A DNA stretch of 64,000 nt from Cyanidioschyzon merolae (GCA_000091205.1 AP006490.2), one strand, 5' to 3'; counted from the first letter of the stretch, positions 14,135 to 62,120 are shown. Notes: a model not told the origin generated them from the letters alone. A program made the numbers and translations.

Positions 14135-14548
14135 TTGTTGTGCATACGCGAGAAGCGTGCATTTGGGCACCTGTTCATGGAGTTGGAAAAGGAAACGACA
14201 GATACGTTGCGTCGCTTGGTGGTAGCGTATGGCGCTGGATTGCTAACGATCGGGAACAATTGCAGCACACCTGCACCGTTGACGTGCGTGTCCAATGCGT
14301 GCAAGCATCGATGCTGCACGATTCCCATCGATGTGTTCAGAATGCTATACAAGTATCACAAGCAACATTGCACGCTGAAACAGGTGGACCATACCTGCGT
14401 GAAACAGAGCTGGATGCACGGAATGGAGTGCGGCAAGCGGAGCGAACGTCAGACGGCGAGGCAGTGGAAGGTGACCGGCATTCTACGCTGCGATTCTCTG
14501 ACACCTAGTGCATGGTATCACTGTCTGCTCCGAAACTTGACCCTATAA
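14135..14548 (+). pseudogene. relic fragment of Fanzor/TnpB-like nuclease gene (RuvC-II to zinc-finger region)
   Basis: 'RRLVVAYGAGLLT...TPAPLT...CKHRCCTIPIDVF...YKYHKQHCTLKQVDHTCVKQ...KVTGILR' is co-linear with copy A 'QRLVVAYGAGRWK...TPAPTT...CARRFVTIPVHEF...YTHHELGCTLQRVEMEKCQR...KVRGLLA'; lacks RuvC-III motif; about 45% identity. Confidence 0.45.
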
Positions 14549-26189: not shown

Positions 26190-28950
26190 TTGCATTGCGC
26201 TCGGTGAGCACGCCTGGGAGATCCGGCAGGCATGAGACACGACGCACATGTTGCCGTTGAAGGGGAACGTGATCCTGATCTCTAGCATGTAGATCTAATG
26301 TAAAAGTTGTAATTTCTTTAACTTCATAGCCAAGTACAGTTTTTCAGTTCATTTTTGTTTCAAACCTCAAGTAAAAATATTCAATTGATTTTTAGCAGTA
26401 TATAATAGAAGCGTTCAAAGAGCGTCCTTTTTCACAAAACAAAAAAGGAAAGTCATGAAAAAGCAAGTTCACGATTCTAGAGGCCCAGGGTCGCCGGCTG
26501 CCAGAAAAAAACAAAAAACAGTGCCGAGTCCAGAAGAAAAGGAAGAGAAGAAGGACCGAAAGGGGAGGTCGTACGTCGAAGGCGGCAAGATAGACGGCTG
26601 TACGACGAGATGGTGGTGAAAACCTTTCTTCTTGGACATATCAAGGATCCCTACAGAGAAAAGTTGCGAGACGCTATCAAAAAACGTGTCGACTCATACT
26701 CCAAGAGTATTGTCAAGGCGTCGTCAGGACTGATGCATTTGGCGAGGGAGATGTATCGCGACGTGACGGACATGGAAACGGTCGAGATTCCAGACGAGTT
26801 CTTCGACAAGACCTTTATTCGTCAGCTGATGCTTGGTACAGAGGAAACGCGGAAGGAAAATGAGCGGGTTCACGCTCTTCACGAAAACTTCGCGGAATTC
26901 CGCTTCGAGAGTAATCGATACAGAGGTGATCGGGATATTTAGACATACGGAGCGAAAACGCACATCACGAGTCTGAAGTACCATTTGACAGTGAACCTCG
27001 AACGTTTCATGATACGCGCCGTGGTTGCACTCTACCCGGGCATCTCTCGCAAAGGAATATGGGCGATTATCAATGGCATCACGAAAGATCGTAAGCATGA
27101 AGATGAGATCGAATGCGTCGACAAGCAGGCGTCAAACGAGGGCACGAATGAGGATTCTGTAATCCGTGCGGCTAAACAAGAGCATCGTGCGGTACTGGGG
27201 CTGGCGAATCCAACAGACAAGATATCGGAGTTGAAAAAAGAAAGATATTATCGCCTCGTCCTGCTCTATTTCGTGTTTCTGGACCGAGAGCTCGAACGCA
27301 AAGCAGAGATGAAGCTGAGCGAAGAGATAAATGAAGAGTGGGAGAGACGGAAGGCTGTCCTAATGGGGAAGCGCTTCAACGTGGTTCCAATGTCAAATAT
27401 CAAGTCACATTTTGTGACGATCGACTCCAGAGTCCTTTATGGCATCATGAAGGAGATCAGTCCGGAGTTCGATGTTAGCAGGGAGGAGTTCACCAGCGGA
27501 AACCGGCAGACATGCTGGAAGAGTATCTTCGATTTCAAACGTCTCAAAGTCAGCAAACGAAAGGTATTCACTGGGATGATCGAGACCGATGGAGTAGCCT
27601 TGTGTGTACACTATCGGCGATTGAAGAAAGATCGTCCAGTTCCGCCCTCGGCTGCGCCTGTGACGAAGGATGCAGAAAACAAAGAGGAAGATCCTGCGAC
27701 GCAGGAGGTGGAGGATAACGACATTGTCGTTGACGTGACGAAGGATGAAGATGAGAAGGTGACGGATCCTGCGACACAGGAGGTGCAAGATAACGACCAT
27801 GTCGTTGATGCGGCGAAGCATGAAGATGAGAAGGAGGAGGATACCGCGACGCAGAAAGTGCAGGATAACGACTTTGTCGTTGACGTGGCGCAGCATGAAG
27901 ATGAGAAGGAGGCGGATCCTGCGGTGCAGAAAGTGCAAGATAACGGCTTTGTTGCTGGCGCGGACCCCGGGAATACGAATATCATCACCATCGCAGCACC
28001 GAGGCGTGCGGAAGATGGTACTGACGGTTCCTTGCGTCAGAAAGACTTGCGTCTTTTGAGGTTCTCGAGAGCAAGATACTATCGAGAATCGGGAATCATG
28101 AATGCGAGGAAGAAAATTCCTGCATGGAATGCAGGAATGAAGGATCACCTGGAAGCTTTGAGCGAGGTGACGAGCCGAGGAGCAGACTTTCAAGCTTTTC
28201 GGAAATTCATGGAAGTTCGCATTGCGCGTTGGCATGCACTGTGGGAGGAGTATACCAAGCCTCTGTGGGCTCGTCTGCGAATGAGTCTATACGGCGGGAG
28301 GCAGCGCGCGCTCGCGAACTTTTTCAATGAGTTGAGCGCACTCAAAGAGGATGAGAGTCAGAGGCTCGTAGTAGCATACGGAGCAGGGCGCTGGAAGACC
28401 CAAAAAGGGACTACGCCAGCTCCAACGACAAGAACTTACAAGGAGTGTGCAAGGCGTTTTGTTACGATACCTGTACATGAGTTTCGAACGTCCTATACAC
28501 ACCATGAACTGGGGTGTACACTTCAGAGGGTCGAGATGGAAAAGTGCCAACGGGGTCCTGAGGAAATAGGAAAGCACGGAGAGGTGACTGAGCAGCAAAT
28601 GGAAAGGAGGGCGAAAGTGCGAGGGCTACTTGCATTAGCAAATACAACCACTGATGGCAAGGAACGTATGGAGTTTGTGAATCGTGACCTTAATGCCGCT
28701 ATCAATATAAGGTGATGTGCGGTGCTCGAGAGCAGATCTCCAGAGTCGACAAAAGAAAACGTTATTGGCCAGCCTCTAAAAGTTGAACTATATGAGAAAC
28801 AATTGGAAGCAGTGGCAGGTGGCCGCTCCAAAAAGACTGGCAGCCATCAGCACGTCAGTTGGAGATGTCTAGCCTAGGGCGCGGTTGCCGCCACTACTGT
28901 ACCACAGGCAGCAACGTTTTTCTTTTGAAAGACGTTTGTTTCCAGGGGTA
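26190..28950 (+). mobile_element. Fanzor/TnpB-like (IS605 OrfB-type) element, copy A, about 2.75 kb
   Basis: Left end defined by alignment with copy D ('GCATYGCGCTCGGTGAGC...ATGAGACACGACGC...'), right end by shared '...GCAGCAACGTTTTTCTTTTGAAAG...'; AT-rich 5' leader; single nuclease ORF; lower GC than flanks. Confidence 0.6.
26610..28715 (+). pseudogene. Fanzor/TnpB-like RuvC nuclease gene, copy A (one in-frame stop at about 26943, N-terminal ATG lost)
   Basis: RuvC-I '[16 protein letters not shown]'; 'QRLVVAYGAGRWK'; degenerate Zn finger 'CARRFVTIPVHEFRTSYTHHELGCTLQ...EKCQ'; RuvC-III 'ERMEFVNRDLNAAINIR'; four about 23-aa acidic tandem repeats before RuvC-I. Confidence 0.6.
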
Positions 28951-31003: not shown

Positions 31004-31448
31004 GATGGAGTTGCGAAGCGGGCTGCAGCACATTTTGAGCAGCGCTCCAGAGAAGCTACGCTGGCGGTGGCACGCTTACCACGAATGCAGCGCAGAACGG
31101 TAATTGATGCGGGAAGCACGACGCTGTGAAGCTTTGTGTTGCATGATGCGGCATGTATCCGGGGCTTTGGTTGTGAGGAAAATGCGGGTTCAGGCGCTCT
31201 TGAGGCGTTGACAGTGCAAAGCATGTTCATTCGAGGTACATTGTCCGTGCGATATGGTTGCGGGCTCGCACATCTGGAGGAGGACTCTACGGGACTCGAG
31301 CTATCGGTGATGCAAGACCCGGGGGTACGAAAGCTAGCTGGCTAGCTAGCTGGCTGAGCGCCGAGGCCCCCTGCAGGACAACCTGGTGCATATTTGTGCA
31401 AGTCCTCGCAAATCGCTCGACAAGACATGCGGCCTCGTGTCTGGAACT

Positions 31449-32236
31449 GCACGCGTATCAGATGCCGCGGGAATACCAGACCGCTGGCTCTATTCCTGCT
31501 TTGCGATCTTTTCGGAGCCTGTTCAGACTTATTGTCTCTATTTTCAAATTTAAGCGATAAGGGCTTACGGATTCAGATGCAGTTCTAGGATGCTGTGTCG
31601 TCGTTTCGGAGACGTTCGTTCGAGTCTCTCTGCCACTGCAACTCGTTACGTCAGTGGAATCAAGATGCTACGCGGCATTCCGGAATGTGCGTTCGTAAAA
31701 TAACCGACAGCATGATGCCGTGCATGTGAGCAAGCTTCCGTGCTTCTTGTTGCTCCATGAAACACCGCCATGAACTCGTTCACATGGGTCATCGCAGCGA
31801 TAACTTCCAGCAGGGCGTGCGTCGACGTTTTGCATGAAGCGACCAGAGACGCATCGAAGTTTCGTGACGTGGTATCCAGCGTGGATTCCCATTCCTCTAC
31901 CAGTTCTATCATGGGCAACGTCGAGTTTCACAAATCCTCGGTCGAATTGAATGGAGCGTGCTTGCGCGTGCAGCTGGCACAGTGCTCGCCGAACAGATCG
32001 CCCAGAGGCGTCCCGTGATCACGGGGTACTCCAGCGGGCGCGGCAACGGAGCGGGGGCATCCACGGAATCCTTCCGTGCTCGTCGAGGGCATGGATCGAC
32101 TGTTAGCACAGGCGTTCATGTGTCACAGGGCGGTGTTCAGAAGAGGAGATGCGGCGAACGCGTGAGAACACCAGACCCCAGTCAAGCGCTGCGGATGCAT
32201 ATGGCGCACTGAGGCCGTCTACAACGAGAAATACAT
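31449..32236 (+). repeat. about 790-bp dispersed repeat R1, copy 1
   Basis: Near-identical (a handful of mismatches) to 48079-48856, same orientation, offset 16630 bp; ORF track shows identical short ORFs in both copies. Confidence 0.8.
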
Positions 32237-44495: not shown

Positions 44496-45482
44496 GTGGT
44501 CGTTTTTCTGCGGCAGTGAACACGTTGCCTAGTCTTCCGGAAAGTCTGAAGCCAACTGGAAAACGCTGCGTTGCTGCACTACTGCAGCGAGTCCTGTTTG
44601 AGAGCACGGGCCTGTGCTGGGTGTTGTTGTGGCTGCGCAAGGTGTCAGTGCCGGGTGTTGTTGTGTGATGCTTTCCGCGAAGAGGCGATGCAGAGCGCTG
44701 TAACTTGGGCTATTATGAGTCCAGAACCAGGGTCGTCACGCTAGAGCTTTCTTTGGAACAAGTCAGTTCCAAGATTGTACAGTATGATGTGCGGAACAGC
44801 GCTGCTGCGCGCGTTGTAACCTGTTCAACTTCTTTTCCAGAAACGCAGTGTTGAACGTGCGTGAAGAGTTTTGGGCTTCGATGAGCCTTGCTTGCGCTGC
44901 ACTAGTTCTGGTGCTACGATTGAAACCGGACCGGGTACAATACTCTATGCCAAAGGCGGCTCGGAACCGAGACTTGACCACAGCATAGCGAGCCCTCGAG
45001 GCCTTTTGCGGGTACGCGCTTGCCGCTTCTTGCGGACCGGGCCAACGCAACGCTTGCACGTGCAAACGTACCGTTGTGTTTCGTGACGTGACGTCGTCGC
45101 AGGAAAGAAACTCGAATCCCAGACTCGGGTGCGTACCGTTTCGGCGATATGGATACGAGGGCGTGTAGTCTTTCAACCCGAGTGCGATTCACCCCCAGGT
45201 GCATGATTTCAAATGCTTTTTCGCGGTTTATAGCAGATGCGTTCCAAGTGCGTGCATTTTGAAGAAATAATTATCTAATGAAAAGGCATGGAGATGGAAG
45301 GCGGGGGATCCTAGAGGGCCGGTGTCATCGGGGGCCGGAAAAGTAACGAAAAGAAATCCACTTCTCGCCGGCCAACGAGCGACAAAGAGCAAGGAATGAA
45401 GAAGAAGAAAGAGAAGCGGCGCGAGAGACGGGAATGTATTGGTACACAGGGCACGAGGTCCCGGCATCCTTGTAATGGTGCG

Positions 45483-45700
45483 TTCCATCAGCGGCAAGAA
45501 ACGGATGGAGTTCGTGAACCAAGACTTCAACGCAGTCATCAAAATCAGACGGTGTGCAGTGCTGAAGAGAAGAGACTCGAGGAACTGACGCAATCCAATT
45601 TTGCGGGGTTACCTTTCAGAGTCGAAGTGTACAACGAGAAACTCAAGCCGATAGCAGCCGGCCGGTCAAACAAGACTGGGAGGCGTCTGCGGGTGCGTAT
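45483..45700 (+). mobile_element. 3'-terminal fragment of Fanzor/TnpB-like element
   Basis: Encodes '...GKKRMEFVNQDFNAVIKIRRCAVL...RVEVYNEKLKPIAAGRSNKTGRRLRV' matching the C-terminus and downstream conserved region ('GCCGGTC.AAA..GGGAGGCGTCTGC') of copies A-D. Confidence 0.5.
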
Positions 45701-47908: not shown

Positions 47909-48078
47909 CAGTTCTAGTTGGCTACAAAGGATATTACGGCTTAACGGAATCCATGGTTAACGCGGCTATCATGGTGTTCCGGAAGGTCGGCTCCGATCCA
48001 GAGCCGCAACCCGCGATCTGGACGGCGCGATTTGATCCGTTTTGTTCGCCGATCGTTGCGCGATCGTCAACGGTATCT

Positions 48079-48856
48079 GCACGCGTTTCAGATGCCGCGG
48101 GAATACCAGACCGCTGGCTCTATTCCGGCTTTGCGATCTTTTCGGAGCCTGTTCAGACTTATTGTCTCTATTTTCAAATTTAAGCGATAAGGGCTTACGG
48201 ATTCAGATGCAGTTCTAGGATGCTGTGTCGTCGTTTCGGAGACGTTCGTTCGAGTCTCTCTGCCACTGCAACTCGTTACGTCAGTGGAATCAAGATGCTA
48301 CGCGGCATTCCGGAATGTGCGTTCGTAAAATAACCGACAGCATGATGCCGTGCATGTGAGCAAGCTTCCGTGCTTCTTGTTGCTCCATGAAACACCGCCA
48401 TGAACTCGTTCACATGGGTCATCGCAGCGATAACTTCCAGCAGGGCGTGCGTCGACGTTTTGCATGAAGCGACCAGAGACGCATCGAAGTTTCGTGACGT
48501 GGTATCCAGCGTGGATTCCCATTCCTCTACCAGTTCTATCATGGGCAACGTCGAGTTTCACAAATCCTCGGTCGAATTGAATGGAGCGTGCTTGCGCGTG
48601 CAGCTGGCACAGTGCTCGCCGAACAGATCGCCCAGAGGCGTCCCGTGATCACGGGGTACTCCAGCGGGCGCGGCAACGGAGCGGGGGCATCCACGGAATC
48701 CTTCCGTGCCCGTCGAGGGCATGGATCGACTGTTAGCACAGGCGTTCATGTGTCACAGGGCGGTGTTCAGAAGAGGAGATGCGGCGAACGCGTGATGACA
48801 CCAGACCCCAGTCAAGCGCTGCGGATGCATATGGCGCACTGAGGCCGTCTACAACG
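48079..48856 (+). repeat. about 790-bp dispersed repeat R1, copy 2
   Basis: see 31449-32236. Confidence 0.8.
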
Positions 48857-54821: not shown

Positions 54822-55353
54822 AACATTCATGTGATATCGATTGCATAAATTGGATATAAAGGCTTGTTGGCGTCCGCTCCCACGCGCAGTTGGACAATCA
54901 TGACTTTAGCGTATATTTATGTATTAAACGGACACACTTCTCTGCATTCCGTTTTGCGGCTCTCCGCATGGGTGTCGATCACGGCTAGGCGAGCCCATTC
55001 CGAGCAACTAGGCGTCAATCGCTGGCGCTGCGACCCACGGACTGATAGGACGCGCTTTAGACAGAATGGCCCATTGTCTTGCTCCTAGCGCGCTGCGTGC
55101 CGCGTCTCCATACGCGTCGGACTCGTCGCGGCAACGTTGCGAAGACCCGTCGCCTCCGCGGCTGTTCGTTTTGTACACGGCAGAGCGGCGACTCGGTCCT
55201 GGACCATGCGCGTGATGCCTGTCGTCGCCCCGCAAAACGGCTGTCTCTCTAAGCGCTACACGTTTGCGCATTGTTTGCGTGTCGGCATGACGCGCAACTG
55301 GCAGAACAGCGCCGTATAGCACTCGCACAGACGCGAGCGTGGACAGAAAAGCA

Positions 55354-55422
55354 GGTACAGGCATAGGTACAGGCATAGGTACAGGCATAGGTACAGGCAT
55401 AGGTACAGGCATAGGTACAGGT
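55354..55422. repeat. 12-bp tandem repeat (GGTACAGGCATA) x about 5.7
   Basis: Direct observation; right palindrome arm has only about 1.5 units (59098-59122, inverted). Confidence 0.9.
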
Positions 55423-55620
55423 GTGGGCTCCAGGTCGGCCCCGGAGAAGGAAGCGTGTGCAAGTACCATGGCGGCTAAAAATCGTTCGCAAAATATCACT
55501 TTATAGGCATCGAGGCTACGCATCAACGCACGGACGATCACTCACTCGCTTTCCATAGGTCGTATCCTTCCTCCATTGCATCCGGTCTTCCTTACATCAA
55601 GGCTTTCACCGCTCTCCGCT

Positions 55621-55914
55621 TTAGTTCCCCTGGAACTTTTCCTTGGTGGCATCTGCTGCGTGCTCTATTCCTTTCTTCGCAGACTGACCGGTTTCCTTCA
55701 GGTGATCCACTGCATCACCCGCCTTGTCTTGAGCTTTCTCCTGTGCGGACTTTTGCCCGGTGAGATCACGGAACTTGTCAGAGATCGTCTCCTTCGCCGA
55801 TGAAAACGCACCAGTGACAGACTCTTTCGCAGAATCCAAAGCGCCACCCGCTTTCTTCTCCGTATCTTTGAGAGCCGACTGTGCTGAGCTTGTATCTTGA
55901 GCTCCGGAAGACAT
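55621..55914 (-). CDS. small hydrophilic LEA/CsbD-like protein (97 aa)
   Basis: 'MSSGAQDTSSAQSALKDTEKKAGGALDSAKESVTGAFSSAKETISDKFRDLTGQKSAQEKAQDKAGDAVDHLKETGQSAKKGIEHAADATKEKFQGN'; paralog at 58606-58899. Confidence 0.5.
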   Translation of the reverse strand: MSSGAQDTSSAQSALKDTEKKAGGALDSAKESVTGAFSSAKETISDKFRDLTGQKSAQEKAQDKAGDAVDHLKETGQSAKKGIEHAADATKEKFQGN

Positions 55915-56019
55915 ATCACAATTTATAATGCTTTCGTAAACTCGAAAAATGCATATGCAAATGAGGTACCACGGCGCGCGCGGTGGCCGCACAGCCACAA
56001 ACACAGGAGATTTTACCGC

Positions 56020-57366
56020 AACAGGACCCGCACGCACCGCAGTTTGAAAGTCGAACGACGGCGGTGTACAGTAGCGGCGAACGATGCGCCCTAGACGACG
56101 TCTCCAACTGAGGTGCAGACGCCTCCCGGCCTTTTTGGACCGGCCACCCGCTACTGCTTCCAACTTTTTCTCAAATAATTCCACTTTGGGAGGTTGTCCA
56201 ATAACGTTCTCTCGTGGCAACTCTGGAGGTCTGCTCTCGAGCACCGCACATGTCGTTATCTTGATAGCGGCGTTAAAGTCTCGGTTCACAAACTCCATAC
56301 GTTCCGTGCCATCATTGGTTGTACTTACTAATGCAAGCAGTCCCCGAACTTTCGCCCTCCTTTCCATTTGCGCTTCCGTCAGCGGTCCGTACTTTGCTAT
56401 TCCCTCAGGGCTGCTCCGACACTTTTCTATCTCGACACTTTGAAGTGTACACCCCAGTTCATGGTGTGTATACGATGTTCGGAACTCATCTATCGATATC
56501 GTAACAAAACGTCGTGCACACTCTATGTACGTTCTCGTCGTTAGAGCTGGTGTACACCTTTTTTGGGTCTTCCAGCGCCCTGATCCGTACGCTACTACCA
56601 GCCTTTGGCTCTCGTCCTCCTTCAGGGCGTTCAACTCATTGAAAAAGTTCGCGAGCACGCGCTGCCTCCCACCGTATAGACTCATTCGCAGACGAGCCCA
56701 CCGGGGCTTTGTATACTCCTCCCGTAGCGCCTCCCGATGAGGAACACGAACTTCCATGACTTTCCGAGAAGCTTGAAAGTGTGCTCCGCGGCCCGTCACC
56801 TCGCTCAAAGCTTCCAGGTGATCCTTCATTCCTGCATCCCATGCAGGAATTTTCTTCCTCGCATTCATGACTCCCGATTCTCGATAGTATCTTGCTCTCG
56901 GGAACCTCAAAAGACGCATGTCTTTCTGACGCAAGGAACCGTCAGTACTATCTTCCGCACGCTACGCTGCGCGATGGTTATGATACTCGTATTCTCAGGG
57001 TCCGCGCCAACGACAAAGCCGTTATCTTGCACTTTCTGCACCGCAGGATCCGCCTCCTTCTCATCTTCATGCTGCACCACGTCAACGACAAAGTCGTTAT
57101 CCTGCACTTTCTGCGTCGCGGTACCCGCCTCCTTCTCATCTTCTTGCTGCGCCACGTCAACGACAAAGTAGTTATCCTGCACTTCCTGTGTGGCAGGATC
57201 CGCCTCTTTGTTTTCTGCATCCTTCGTCACGGGCGGAGCCGAGGGCGGAACTGGCCGATCTGTCTTCAACCGCCGATAGTGTACACACAAGGCTACTCCA
57301 TCGGTTTCGATCATCCCAGTGAACAACTTTTGTTTGCTGACTTTGAGCCGTTCGAAACTGAAGATA
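56020..57366 (-). pseudogene. Fanzor/TnpB-like nuclease element, copy B (5'-truncated; 3' boundary approximate)
   Basis: Encodes from '[22 protein letters not shown]' through RuvC-I 'VVGADPENTSIITIA', 'LVVAYGSGRWK', Zn finger and 'FVNRDFNAAIKI'; no stop before downstream LEA-like ORF. Confidence 0.55.
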
Positions 57367-58570
57367 TTCTTCGTTGGGATGATCGAAACCGATGGAGCAG
57401 CCTTGTGTGTACACTATCGGCGGTTTCAGGCGGATCATCCAGCTCCGTCTTCGACTTCGCCGGGACGGAGCATGAAGCGAAGAAAGAGGCGGATCGTGCC
57501 ACGCAGAAAGTGCAGGATAAAGAATTTCCCATTGACGCTACGAAGCATGAAGATGAGATGGAGGCGGATACCGCGACGCAGGAGATGCAGGATAACGACT
57601 TTGTCGTTGGCGCGGACCCTTGGAACACGAATATCATTGGCATGGCTGTACCCAAGCGTGCGGAAGATGGTATCAACGACAGCCCATTTCAGAGAGACAT
57701 GCGTCTGTTGAGATTCTCGAGAGCAAGATACTACCTAGAATTGGGAATCATGAATGCAAGGAAGGAAATTGAGGCATGGAATGCGGAAGTGAAAGAGCAT
57801 CAGGAAGCTTTGAGCGAGGTGACAAGCCGAGGAGCGGGCTTTCAAGCTTTTCTGAAATTCATGGAAGTTCGCATTGCGCACTGGGATGCATTGTGGGAGG
57901 AGTATACAAAGCCCCGGTGGGCTCGTTTGCAAATGAATCTATACGTTGGGAAGCAGCGGGCCTTCGCGAGTTTTTTCAATCAGTTGAGTGCCCTGAAGGA
58001 GGATGAAAATCAGAGGCTCGTAGTAGCGTATAGAGCAGGGCGCTGGGCGCCCAAGAAAGGCACTACGCCAGCTCCAACGACGGGGGCGTACAAGGAGTGC
58101 GCACGGCGTTTCGTCGCGATACCGATAGATGAGTTCCGTTCGTCCTATACACTCCATGAACTGGGGTGTACACTTCAGAGAGTGGAGATGGAAAAGTGCC
58201 AACGGAGCCCTGAGGAAATAGCAAAGTACGGACCTCTGACGGAAGAGCAAATGGAAAGGAGGGCGAAACTTCGGGGGCTACTTGCATTAGTAAGTACAAC
58301 CAGTGATGGCAAGGAACGTATGGAGTTTTTAAACCGAGACTTTAACGTCGCTATCAATTTAAGGAGATGTGCGGTGCTGGAGACGAGACCTCCAGAGCTG
58401 ACAAGAGAGAACTTTGTTGGACAACCGCCCAAAGTAGAACTATATGAGAAAATATGGAATCAGTAGTAGGTGGCCGGTCCAAAAAGGCTGGGAGGCGTCT
58501 GCACGTCAGTGGGAGATGTTTCGTCTAGGGCGCGTGCTTCGCCACTATTGTACACCGTTGGCGTCGTTCG
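57366..58570 (+). pseudogene. Fanzor/TnpB-like nuclease element, copy C (5'-truncated; 3' boundary approximate)
   Basis: '[17 protein letters not shown]' ... 'VVGADPWNTNIIGMA' ... 'LVVAYRAGRWA' ... 'EFLNRDFNVAINLR'; stop at 58466. Confidence 0.55.
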
Positions 58571-58605
58571 AGTGCGAAAGGTGTTCCCTTAGCGTCGCAG
58601 TGACA

Positions 58606-58899
58606 ATGTCTTCTGGGTCGCAGGATACCTCTTCTGGTCAATCAGTTCTCAAAGATGCCGAGGCGAAGGTAGGCAGTGCATGGGAATCCACGAAGGAGTC
58701 AGTTTCTGAAGCGTTCACTTCGGCCAAGGAGACTATCTCTGACAAGTATCGTGATCTCACCGGCCAAAAGTCCGCGCAGGAGAAAGCCCAAGACAAGGCG
58801 AGCGAGGCGGTGGATCACCTAAAGGAAACCGGTCAGTCCGCGAAGGAGAGTTTGCAGCACGCTGCAGATGCAGCCTCGGAAAAGTTAAAGGACGGCTAA
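58606..58899 (+). CDS. small hydrophilic LEA/CsbD-like protein (97 aa)
   Basis: ATG at 58606; about 80% identical to 55621-55914 product. Confidence 0.5.
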   Translation: MSSGSQDTSSGQSVLKDAEAKVGSAWESTKESVSEAFTSAKETISDKYRDLTGQKSAQEKAQDKASEAVDHLKETGQSAKESLQHAADAASEKLKDG

Positions 58900-59417
58900 C
58901 GGAGAGAGCGTAGAAAGACTTGAGTGAAGGATGCACGGAAGTAAAACAGGAAGGATACGACCTATGGACAGCGAGTGAGTGATCGTCCGTGCGTTGATGC
59001 GTAGCCTCGATGCCTATAAAGTGATGTTTTGCGAACGATTTTTAGCCGCCATGGTACTTGCACACGCGTCCCGCTCCGGGGCCGACCCGCAGCCCACACC
59101 TGTACCTATGCCTGTACCTGCTTTCCTGTCCACGCCCGCGTCTGTGTGAGTGCTATACGGCGCTGTTCTGCCAGTTGCGCGTCATGCCGACACCCAAACA
59201 ATGCGCAAACGTATAGCGCTTATAGAGAGATAGTTGTTCCGCGGGGCGAGCGCCCGCAATCGCAGTCGAGGGCACAATCGACTCGATCGCTGCCGCACGG
59301 GGCGCGACGCATCGCACGCTGTGGTGCAGCGCAGCGCGTACCGGCCTCTGGAAGCAAGTTGTGCGCAGCAGCGATCTGAGGCCTTTATCCATCGGTGCAG
59401 CGTCTCGCGCGGTGCAC

Positions 59418-62120
59418 GCATCGCGCTCGGTGAGCGTACCCGGGAGATCAGGCAGATATGAGACACGACGCGCATGTCGCCGCTGAAGGGAAACGCGATC
59501 CTGACCATTCGTTGACGTGTTGTTCTAACGTAAAACTTGTATTTGCATTGGAATCGTAACAGAATATATTGTTTCATCTCAGTCGTGTTTCAACCTTCAA
59601 GTAAAAATACTCGAGCGCTTTTTCGCGGTTTAGAGCAGAGACGTTAATAGTGCGTTCTAAATCAAAAAAAAAAAACTAAAAAAGGAAAGTTCTGGACAGC
59701 GAAGTGGAGGACCCTGGAGGGTCAGTATCGCTGGCAGGCGAGAAAAAAGGAGCAAAAGAGCCAAACATAGAAGAACGAGACAAGACGAAGAAGCAGACGG
59801 GGGAGGTCCTACGTCAATGGCTGCAAGAAAGACGACAGTACGACGAGATGGAGGTGAAAACCTGTCTTCTCGGCTATAGCAAGGATTCGTAGAAGAAAAA
59901 ATTGCGAGAGTCCATCAGAAACTGTGACGAGTCGGACTCCATGAGTTTTCGTAAGACTTCTTTAGGAATGATGCATCTAGCGAGGGAGATGTATCGCGAC
60001 GTGACGCACATGGAAACAGTCGATGTTCCAGAAAAATTTTGCAACAGGAACTTTATTCTTCACCTGATGCTTGGTACAGGGGAAACATCGAGGAGAAATG
60101 AGCGGGTTCACGCCCTCCACGAAAACTTCGCGGAATTCCGCTTCGAGGGTACTCGGTACAGAGGTGACTCGAATATTTACATATACGGGGCGATGAAGTA
60201 CCTCACGAATCTGAAGAACCATTTGACAGTGAACCTTGAACGTTTCATGAGACGCTCGGTGTTTGCACTCTACCGGGGCATCTCTCGCACAGGAATACGG
60301 GCGATTACCAATGGCATCACCAACGAGCACCAGAATGAAGATGAAGTCGAATTTGTCGACAAGAAGGCGTCAAACGAGCGCACGAATGAAGCCTCTGTAA
60401 TCCGTGCGGTTATACAAGAGCGCCGTGCAATCTTGGGGTTGGCGGATCCAATAGACAAGATACCAGAGTTGAAAAAAAATATAAGGAAAGACACTATCGC
60501 CTCATCCTGCGATATTTCGTGTTTTTGCACCGAGAGCCCGAACGCAGTGCGCAGATGAAGCCGAGTGAGGAAAAAATATGAAGAGTGGGAGAGACGGAAA
60601 GCTTTCCTAATGGGGAAGCGCTTCAACGTCGTTCCAATGTGCAGCATCAAGTCACATTTTGTGACTGTCGACCCAACGTACGTTACAGCAAATTGAAGGA
60701 GATCTGTCCGGAGTTCAATGTAAGGAAGACAGAGTTCGCCGGTGAAAACCGGGAGACGTACTGGAAGAACATCTTCAATTTCAAACGGCTCAAAGTCAGC
60801 AAACAAAAGTTGTTCACTGGGATGATCGAAACCGATGGAGTAGCCTTGTGTGTACACTATCGGCGGTTGAAGACAGATCGGCCAGTTCCGCCCTCGGCTC
60901 CGCCCGTGACGAAGGATGCAGAAAACAAAGAGGCGGATCCTGCCACACAGGAAGTGCAGGATAACGACCTTGTCTTGACGTGGAGCAGCATGAAGATGAG
61001 AAGGAGGCGGATACCGCGACGCAGAAAGTGCAGGATAACGACTTTGTCGTTGACGTGGTGCAGCATGAAGATGAGAAGGAGGCGGATCCTGCGGTGCAGA
61101 AAGTGCAAGATAACGGCTTTGTTGCTGGCGCGGACCCCGGGAATACGAATATCATCACCATCGCAGCACCGAGGCGTGCGGAAGATGGTACTGACGGTTC
61201 CTTGCGTCAGAAAGACATGGGTCTTTTGAGGTTCCGGAGAGCAAGATACTATCGAGAATCGGGAGTCATGAATGCGAGGAAGAAAATTCCTGCATGGGAT
61301 GCAGGAATGAAGGATCACCTGGAAGCTTTGAGCGAGGTGACGGGCCGCGGAGCACACTTTCAAGCTTCTCGGAAAGTCATGGAAGTTCGTGTTCCTCATC
61401 GGGAGGCGCTACGGGAGGAGTATACAAAGCCCCGGTGGGCTCGTCTGCGAATGAGTCTATACGGTGGGAGGCAGCGCGTGCTCGCGAACTTTTTCAATGA
61501 GTTGAACGCCCTGAAGGAGGACGAGAGCCAAAGGCTGGTAGTAGCGTACGGATCAGGGCGCTGGAAGACCCAAAAAAGGTGTACACCAGCTCTAACGACG
61601 AGAACGTACATAGAGTGTGCACGACGTTTTGTTACGATATCGATAGATGAGTTCCGAACATCGTATACACACCATGAACTGGGGTGTACACTTCAAAGTG
61701 TCGAGATAGAAAAGTGCCAGAGCAGCCCTGAGGGAATAGCAAAGTACGGACCGCTGACGGAAGCGCAAATGGAAAGGAGGGCGAAAGTTCGGGGACTGCT
61801 TGCATTAGTAAGTACAACCAATGATGGCACGGAACGTATGGAGTTTGTGAACCGAGACTTTAACGCCGCTATCAAGATAACGACATGTGCGGTGCTCGAG
61901 AGCAGACCTCCAGAGTTGCCACGAGAGAACGTTATTGGACAACCTCCCAAAGTGGAGTTATTTGAGAAAAAGTTGGAGGCAGTAGCGGGTGGCCGGTCCA
62001 AAAAGGCCGGGAGGCGTCTGCACCTCAGTTGGAGACGTCGTCTAGGGCGCATCGTTCGCCGCTACTGAACCACTGGCGGCAGCGTTTTTCTTTTGAAAAG
62101 CGTTTGCTGCTCGGGGTGCT
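59418..62120 (+). mobile_element. Fanzor/TnpB-like element, copy D, about 2.7 kb
   Basis: Both ends align with copy A; right end 12 bp upstream of the CysRS ATG. Confidence 0.6.
59704..62068 (+). pseudogene. Fanzor/TnpB-like RuvC nuclease gene, copy D (at least 3 frameshifts/stops; GTG at 59704 in ORF track)
   Basis: Fragments 59704-59892, 59902-60558, 60585-61229, 60980-62068 are co-linear with copy A; retains '[16 protein letters not shown]', 'LVVAYGSGRWK', 'FVNRDFNAAIKI'; 1-nt deletion near 60975 and homopolymer indel near 60480. Confidence 0.6.

Follow-up and report, generated by a model that had tools for sequence, protein, structure and literature searches.

An inverted repeat of Fanzor1 relics and LEA-like genes in Cyanidioschyzon merolae

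We analysed a 64,000-nucleotide stretch of DNA (the window) from a 739,753-bp chromosome of Cyanidioschyzon merolae 10D (GCA_000091205.1, AP006490.2), on which locus tags begin with CMH and two housekeeping proteins encoded in the window are exact matches to the 10D entries BAM79763.1 and BAM79773.1. The window contains an inverted repeat at 55225-59249, with its axis at 57327-57372, in which each arm carries a 5'-truncated copy of a Fanzor1 gene followed by a small LEA-like gene. The original prediction had recognised a palindrome of about 4 kb at 55205-59262 and explained it by one fold-back or template-switch duplication whose arms had since diverged. The palindrome is real, but its arms are not of a single age. 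The structure appears to be an inverted repeat of transposon origin on which deletion and gene conversion have acted, all of these being known kinds of event, at a specific locus that appears to be undescribed. With moderate confidence we propose a composite history made up of an old LEA pair, two Fanzor1 insertions, a central deletion and gene conversion.

The evidence for separate ages comes from neutral divergence, which reaches 57% at four-fold sites of the LEA-like genes, 16.6% in the Fanzor arms and 2-4% in the outer block. The Fanzor arms, copies B and C, differ at 127 of 764 sites, and the difference from the LEA four-fold sites is significant (Fisher p = 1.7e-7). Since a fold-back makes arms of one age, a single such event in its simple form is unsupported by segments that differ in this way. 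The earlier picture of one event followed by simple divergence of the arms is thus not borne out, the LEA, Fanzor and outer-block divergences being unequal and copy C being no closer to copy B than to other members of its family. A fold-back is possible only together with several later gene conversions.

The features are as follows (window coordinates, strand, description; ORF, open reading frame).

55225..55570, minus strand: left outer block, the 3' flank of LEA-B, 96-98% identical to 58950-59249
55621..55914, minus strand: LEA-B, intact 97-codon LEA-like ORF with 73% amino-acid identity to LEA-C
55915..56019, minus strand: spacer of ~105 nt from the tip of copy B to the LEA-B start codon
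56020..57372, minus strand: copy B, 5'-truncated Fanzor1 pseudogene fragment with a type-2 tip at 56020-56066
57280..57413, no strand: central snap-back hairpin with a ~38-bp stem and a ~56-nt loop
57327..57372, no strand: asymmetric centre and junction, 46 nt of Fanzor sequence present in arm B only
57367..58590, plus strand: copy C, fragment of a Fanzor1 pseudogene, truncated at the 5' end and of type 2 at the 3' tip
58606..58899, plus strand: LEA-C, intact 97-codon LEA-like ORF
58950..59249, plus strand: right outer block, where homology stops at ~59249, 168 bp short of copy D
59418..62117, plus strand: copy D, full-length frameshifted Fanzor1 element that is nearly identical to copy B in its 3' part (60764-62070)
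26192..28949, plus strand: copy A, the comparator, a Fanzor1 element of full length that is interrupted by two in-frame stops

Unequal divergence along the arms

Self-comparison of the window gives inverted matches on both sides of the axis (E ~0) and excludes chance as their source. The inner match pairs 56051-57151 with 58571-57466 (81.7% identity over 1111 nt, E ~0) and the outer match pairs 55225-55914 with 59249-58606 (77.7% identity over 692 nt, E ~0). The same comparison identifies four copies of one ~2.7-kb gene family in the window (A, B, C and D). As predicted, copies B (minus strand) and C (plus strand) are 5'-truncated and lie head-to-head, meeting at 57366-57372 where a point of about 57366 had been claimed, and the mirror symmetry extends outwards through the LEA-like genes, each arm holding one intact 97-codon ORF and ~330 bp of flank. 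The prediction left unremarked that identity between the arms is very uneven: the outer 0.3 kb reaches 96-98%, other parts only 73-89%.

LEA-B and LEA-C differ at 70 of 291 sites, with 42 of the differences at third positions and 20 of the 35 four-fold sites changed (57%). Their dS is 1.05 and their dN 0.16 (dN/dS 0.155), for an amino-acid identity of 73%. The two are an old duplicate pair, both under purifying selection, and look like real genes. Both appear to be absent from the 10D annotation, and no ORF version that we tried turned up under an NCBI name in the protein collection. The term 'LEA-like' is a description of composition and repeat style: LEA-C scores below threshold with every curated model it touches (Apolipoprotein 1e-4, HSP9_HSP12 0.08, YtxH 0.08), and a divergent, 62%-identical homologue (P0296) has a faint precomputed match to PF27970 LEA1_2_D7_KIN2. 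We found eight LEA homologues. The pre-duplication LEA locus was not found, the sole divergent relative (L018/L019) being a contig that has just one LEA gene and is too short to be of help. Several 'proteins' from metagenomes (P0297-P0302) are chimeric, with breaks that fall within these LEA ORFs.

On the inner side of the LEA-like genes, the spacers between the Fanzor tip and the LEA start measure ~105 nt in arm B and ~20 nt in arm C and are unalignable. On the outer side, the blocks at 55225-55570 and 58950-59249 are 96-98% identical save for a 48-nt difference in array length, and their homology ends abruptly at ~55225. The adjacent LEA coding sequence is only ~78% identical between the arms. 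A 12-mer, AGGTACAGGCAT, is repeated 5.8 times at 55353-55421 and codes for PVPM in one frame; its counts differ between the arms as claimed (5.8 vs ~1.8 copies). The near-identity of the outer blocks is due either to recent conversion between the arms or to constraint on the element, and the outer 0.3-kb block has no match in Rfam.

The Fanzor arms are likewise not each other's closest relatives. Over a 911-bp block, identity is 98.7% between B and D; for C it is 82.5% with B, 83.1% with the unlinked copy A and 84.4% with the copy on contig L026. C shares 81.6-84.4% identity with copies at other loci, the family tree is star-like, and all copy pairs other than B/D are 82-87% identical. The exceptional pair, also unremarked before, is formed by B 56066-57372 and D 62070-60764 (97.9-99% identity), and the tract is bounded by the junction on one side and by a change from type-2 to type-1 tip on the other. 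Near-identity that is bounded by divergent or non-homologous sequence, in a family whose other members are divergent, is the pattern expected of ectopic gene conversion or concerted evolution, and the B/D tract shows it. Between 10D and a metagenome strain C differs by 0.4% and B and D by 1.3%, so that both the junction and the homogenisation of B and D predate the strain split. Copy D is itself uneven, with 80% identity to A in its 5' part and 87% in its 3' part. Together B (minus strand, 56066-57372) and D (plus strand, 60764-62070) form a 1.3-kb inverted repeat around 3.4 kb of sequence (57373-60763), a predicted substrate for a flip.

The 3' end of the element bears a short hairpin that exists in two compensatory variants (sites at 28880-28949, 62050-62117, 56020-56070 and 58553-58590, and on L022, L026 and L029). 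The type-1 form, AACGTTTTTC-TTTT-GAAAGACGTT, occurs in A, D and L022; the type-2 form, CGTTCGA-CTT-TCGAACG, occurs in L029 and in degenerate form in B, C and L026. The type-2 tip of B and C is also found at unrelated loci (L026, L029 and L007-E), so it is a subfamily mark and not a sign of common descent from one insertion. The terminal hairpin may represent a conserved structure of the element's end, or it may belong to the guide-RNA region.

Inside the Fanzor ORF, just before RuvC-I, lie tandem repeats (27660-27963, 57008-57206 and 60930-61122) whose period is 75 bp (25 codons) rather than the 69 bp first reported, and B has one unit more than C. In the protein alignment the number of 75-bp units varies among copies and homologues from none to ~5. 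Mutation resembling repeat-induced point mutation was considered and rejected, as the differences between B and C comprise 75 transitions and 52 transversions with no strong directional bias.

Fanzor1 identity and position of the copies

The description of the repeated gene as Fanzor-like is correct. A profile of 43 diverse members, searched against 177,635 PDB sequences, matches only Fanzor1 chains: Parasitella Fz1 (9cf0, 1.4e-16), Spizellomyces Fz1 (8gkh, 2.1e-14) and, as the third and last match, Guillardia Fz1 (9cer, 3.1e-8). A narrower family profile has 8gkh as its top PDB match (E = 0.064). The D-E-D triad of the split RuvC domain, in the order RuvC-I, II, III, is conserved across the 43 members, with D484 and E656 invariant, D725 conserved in at least 90% and NRDxNAAxNI among the motifs. 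RuvC motifs are recognisable at the sequence level in B, C and D; those of copy C read GADPWNTNI, IDEFRSSYT and NRDFNVAINLR. The family comprises 273 word-indexed matches and, in an exhaustive search, 2,303 clusters.

For the Fanzor-like ORFs, the TnpB domains of Pfam and NCBIfam (Cas12f1-like_TNB / OrfB_Zn_ribbon; guided_TnpB) gave nothing above cut-off. Sub-threshold scores were seen with PF07282 (E 0.23-1.1 for the window and for the full-length homologue P0001; 19.4 bits against a cut-off of 26.3 for the distant member P0292) and with NF040570 (E 0.14). The missing curated-domain matches reflect model coverage and do not outweigh the matches to Fanzor1 structures. An apparent PDB relative, KKT4, was dismissed as a spurious low-complexity match in a single-sequence search. 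The AlphaFold2 model of P0001 is of low confidence (mean predicted local distance difference test 50.3, predicted template-modelling score 0.37).

No intact nuclease ORF exists in the window: A has two in-frame stops, D has several frameshifts, and B and C are without the N-terminal half. All Fanzor copies in the window are therefore pseudogenes, and the palindrome has no nuclease function. Two older Fanzor1 relics, at 14153-14512 and 45448-45573 (both plus strand), are short C-terminal stretches with 36% and 60% amino-acid identity to P0001.

The family itself is already known. According to the passages on it in Bao & Jurka 2013 (PMC3627910), C. merolae carries ~150 copies of a ~3-kb Fanzor1 element, CMe-1A, each ~80% identical to the consensus and without terminal inverted repeats. 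Copies A-D are members of CMe-1A or very close to it: organism, size (~2.7-3 kb), identity between copies (~80-87%), the lack of terminal inverted repeats and the split RuvC all agree with what those passages give. The same passages concern the family and not this locus, and unlike the present description they make no mention of the head-to-head pair, the B/D tract, the tip variants or an upstream position (PMC3627910).

That position is a recurrent one. At 10 of 11 independent loci, the next feature downstream of a Fanzor1 copy is a host gene in the same orientation (binomial P = 0.006), at distances of 16 to ~550 nt between copy and start codon. In the window, A precedes a GTPase gene (28949/29147, 198 nt), D the CysRS gene (62117/62133, 16 nt), C LEA-C (58590/58606) and B LEA-B (56020/55914). 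Elsewhere, upstream copies are found on L021, L022, L023/L026, L007 (~11355/11594), L029, L033 and L034, where the host genes code for a DEAD_2 helicase, a Macro-domain protein, IF-2, Kri1, a DAO-family dehydrogenase, an ABC transporter and a PI3/4-kinase. This co-orientation suggests that copies are targeted to the 5' side of genes or selectively retained there, and it offers a lead on how the element chooses its sites or survives in them. One could go further and speculate from the sequence that CMe-1A elements integrate or are retained only sense-upstream of genes and supply or shape the promoter and 5' untranslated region of these, that the centre of the palindrome would serve as a bidirectional LEA promoter and that the B/D repeat would make 3.4 kb invertible; we consider this combined scheme quite unlikely.

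The CysRS gene beside copy D corresponds to BAM79775.1, and its neighbour is tagged CYME_CMH091C. The accession numbering of NUDIX (BAM79773) and CysRS (BAM79775) implies one annotated 10D gene between 54005 and 62132; none of 10 candidate ORFs for it is NCBI-named in the protein collection. Apart from the Fanzor1 copies, the window contains a ~780-bp dispersed repeat of ~99% identity (31447-32229 and 48077-48856) that overlaps an 88-residue ORF of metagenome contigs.

The junction and the origin of the mirror

The junction is real and is no artefact of the 10D assembly. Two independent metagenome contigs carry the identical junction (L004 and L006): it lies in Ga0123519_10053270 (4208 bp; 98.9% identity over window 57159-61368) and in part of the 88-kb contig Ga0080006_1231026 (98.5% identity to 56308-60984), and the adjacency of LEA-B and copy B is reproduced in contigs L008, L009 and L020. 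The C. merolae 10D genome was finished to completion, a relevant point because the one hard repeat at this locus spans 1.3 kb.

That a repeat was collapsed or wrongly joined in assembly is extremely improbable. The locus is indeed rich in repeats, short-read contigs do break at repeat borders (aligned end of Ga0078972_1000926 at ~56190, end of L010 at 56052, start of L004 at 57159), and at least one contig, L007, is chimeric. However, an identical junction occurs in finished 10D and in two independent assemblies from strains that diverge by 1-1.5%, with up to 1 kb of each arm; the arms, at ~18% divergence, cannot collapse onto each other; and the step from LEA-B to B recurs in three further contigs.

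The outer linkage of the 88-kb contig (L007) differs from that of 10D, running from CysRS through a B/D-like arm and the junction to C. At its far end identity switches from ~100% to ~80% at ~D 60800, after which come two genes, Kri1 and a MAPKKK, that 10D has on its 1.62-Mb chromosome. The switch point is a ~40-nt core that is near-identical in all copies, and the B-like arm of the contig mosaics B and D alleles. We rejected L007 as a decisive sign of another arrangement or a translocation, as two 10D chromosomes joined at a conserved core, together with a mosaic arm, form the pattern of a collapsed or chimeric assembly. Looking collapsed or chimeric, the contig does not contradict the 10D order, and it still leaves room for a flip isomer.

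At the centre, the claim that both copies are cut at the same internal position proved wrong. B is homologous to D up to 60764, and C starts at ~D 60810-60813, which sets the truncation points off from each other by 46 nt (15 codons); the first residues of C at the junction read (F)VGMIETDG. A repeat finder leaves 40 unpaired nt (57327-57366) between the innermost arms. Arm B ends in GAAGATATTCTTC, which is joined to GTTGGGATG... of arm C. Nor does the junction sit inside the inverted repeat GAAGA-TAT-TCTTC, as had been thought: this mini inverted repeat lies wholly in arm B with the junction at its outer edge, and its 5-bp arms are ancestral in the family (GAAGA-ACA-TCTTC in D, GAAGA-GTA-TCTTC in A).

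The sequence across the junction bears on how it was primed or joined. Self-priming from the GAAGA-N3-TCTTC mini-hairpin predicts AGTTTCGAAC past the junction, where GTTGGGATG is observed. An alternative pairing of TTCTTC with GAACAA (5/6) predicts the observed continuation apart from two substitutions, so that a microhomology of 3-6 nt (TTC to TTCTTC) at the junction is possible. Such a microhomology and a 40-46 nt spacer are compatible with a fold-back and equally with a deletion between head-to-head copies. The centre (57280-57413) is predicted to fold as DNA at -50.5 kcal/mol (z = -14.2), with a stem formed by the conserved coding core of both copies, and the small ancestral hairpins of the family are not significant (z = -1.5). 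A microRNA precursor at the centre was rejected: the Rfam matches to MIR4227 / MIR6136, on both strands, stay below the gathering threshold (56 bits vs 100, 35 vs 99) and are a generic effect of the long hairpin. Among 281 family proteins screened for antisense plus sense ORFs we found no other head-to-head junction, in a screen that is insensitive to short antisense parts.

Of the signature that had been read as a fold-back or template switch, the inverted arms, the one junction, the centre of 40-46 nt and the possible microhomology stand, and the single age of the arms does not. A single duplication of this kind, taking in a Fanzor fragment, its LEA gene and flank and followed by divergence and several conversions, is possible yet on balance doubtful. 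It would have to match the LEA pair in age, with both Fanzor arms overwritten afterwards from other copies. It would directly produce a contiguous inverted repeat with an asymmetric centre of 40-46 nt and a microhomology between 5'-GAACAA-3' and a 3'-CTTCTT-5' end, and near-coincident truncation points come automatically with it. Gene order is the same in both arms and both tips are type-2. Conversion has been active in the B/D tract and outer block, so that uneven identity could arise secondarily, and after an event as old as dS ~1 one would not expect the spacers to align. However, the age of the LEA pair (57%) predicts pseudogene arms that are barely alignable, and C is 82-84% identical to all members, with no closer donor found. 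The best partner of neither Fanzor arm is the other arm, the continuation is not the one that mini-hairpin priming predicts, and the ancestral hairpins that would do the priming are too weak to reach significance.

In the composite history that we prefer, the first layer would be an old, divergently transcribed pair of unannotated 97-residue LEA-like genes. One independent Fanzor1 insertion would then have occurred upstream of each, in the usual position of the family; with one insertion upstream of each gene of a divergent pair, the two elements come to lie head-to-head. Snap-back pairing of both copies would favour deletion of their 5' halves, between points 46 nt apart and with rejoining at 3-6 nt of microhomology, and the product would be the junction at 57366-57372. 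Interior loss between nearly symmetric points sharing a few bases would explain the 46-nt offset and the microhomology alike, and the present centre, still a strong hairpin (z = -14), supports the snap-back step. Interior deletion of inverted repeats between short stem repeats is an established process, seen in the nearly precise excision of Tn10 and in centre-break deletions in palindromes. As a third layer, the 1.3 kb shared by B and D would have been homogenised by gene conversion or repeated exchange, and the outer 0.3 kb likewise. The anatomy, the segment ages, the family membership and the reality of the junction are shown directly; the order of these events and the mechanism of the deletion we infer.

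Several points weigh against this history. No intermediate was found, neither full-length head-to-head copies nor a LEA pair without Fanzor. The near-coincidence of the breakpoints within 46 nt is automatic in a fold-back and here needs a snap-back-assisted deletion. Conversion is active, so C could have been overwritten too, erasing the age argument drawn from the Fanzor arms. The inverted orientation of the LEA genes needs an older, unexplained inverted duplication. Finally, the upstream co-orientation has its exception in the short relic at 45448-45573 and is based on 11 loci.

The B/D repeat raises the alternative that the mirror is secondary. Here the LEA units, each made up of outer block, LEA gene and Fanzor sequence in direct orientation, would once have been tandem, with a truncated copy upstream of CysRS standing head-to-head with C, and recombination between B and D would have flipped 57373-60763; both isomers may coexist in populations. 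B (minus strand) and the 3' part of D (plus strand) are suitable, 98-99% identical inverted repeats around 3.4 kb, and in the flipped order the LEA units are direct and C and the D 3' part lie between the divergent genes LEA-C and CysRS, C upstream of the former and the D 3' part upstream of the latter. L007 has the linkage that the flip isomer should show (CysRS, B/D-like arm, junction, C), B and D alleles are mixed in its arm, and the different identities of the 5' and 3' parts of D to A (80% vs 87%) suggest that D is a recombinant. We nevertheless judge this unlikely: L007 is chimeric at its other end (Kri1, MAPKKK) and its linkage may stem from a collapsed repeat, the finished 10D sequence has one order only, and the head-to-head junction still needs a separate explanation.

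An abortive ectopic repair would explain the extent of the B/D tract in one step. A break by a short type-2 tip upstream of LEA-B would recently have invaded D, copied its 3' part as far as D 60764, dissociated and been end-joined to the 5' end of C. The D-like tract does fill exactly the interval from the type-2 tip (56066) to the junction (57372) at 98-99% identity, the junction has microhomology only, and short 3' relics of the family exist elsewhere (L022b and 45448-45573, for example). Such a repair leaves the 46-nt near-coincidence of breakpoints to chance, at ~3% for uniform breakpoints in a 2.7-kb element, and ordinary concerted evolution would just as well yield a tract that stops where the shared homology stops. 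We regard it as very unlikely.

Meaning and comparison with known systems

Taken at face value, the palindrome would offer a clean case from nature of fold-back inverted duplication, in a eukaryotic genome that is both finished and very small. Our results show something more ordinary, a mosaic of old gene duplicates, Fanzor1 relics, deletion and gene conversion, and it carries the caution that mirror symmetry alone neither dates nor explains a palindrome. The locus documents active ectopic gene conversion between C. merolae transposon copies and reveals two conserved small genes that are apparently missing from the reference annotation. The effects of the palindrome are probably structural: its centre can fold into a hairpin, and the 1.3-kb B/D inverted repeat could flip the intervening 3.4 kb.

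Fold-back inverted duplications, primed at microhomology and leaving a short spacer, are known from human inverted duplications and yeast palindromic amplifications. The C. merolae repeat resembles them in its inverted arms, single junction, spacer of tens of nucleotides and microhomology of a few nucleotides. Arms born by fold-back are identical at birth and of equal age; the segments here, by contrast, differ several-fold in divergence.

The deletion step of the proposed history has its counterpart in the nearly precise excision of Tn10 and Tn5 and in the breakage of palindrome centres. These share with our locus the snap-back, the loss of the interior between near-symmetric points of short homology and the outcome, a shorter and more stable inverted repeat with an asymmetric centre. 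They differ in being bacterial, mammalian or transgene systems; here each copy would have lost ~1.35 kb, and no intermediate is observed.

Gene conversion between arms or between repeats is known from the palindromes of the human Y chromosome and from plastid inverted repeats. As in these, near-identity at the C. merolae locus is confined to shared homology (1.3 kb between B and D, 0.3 kb in the outer blocks) and stands beside divergent sequence. Unlike in the Y palindromes and plastid repeats, only patches are homogenised, and the best-matched pair is B with D, across a 3.4-kb spacer, rather than the two abutting arms.

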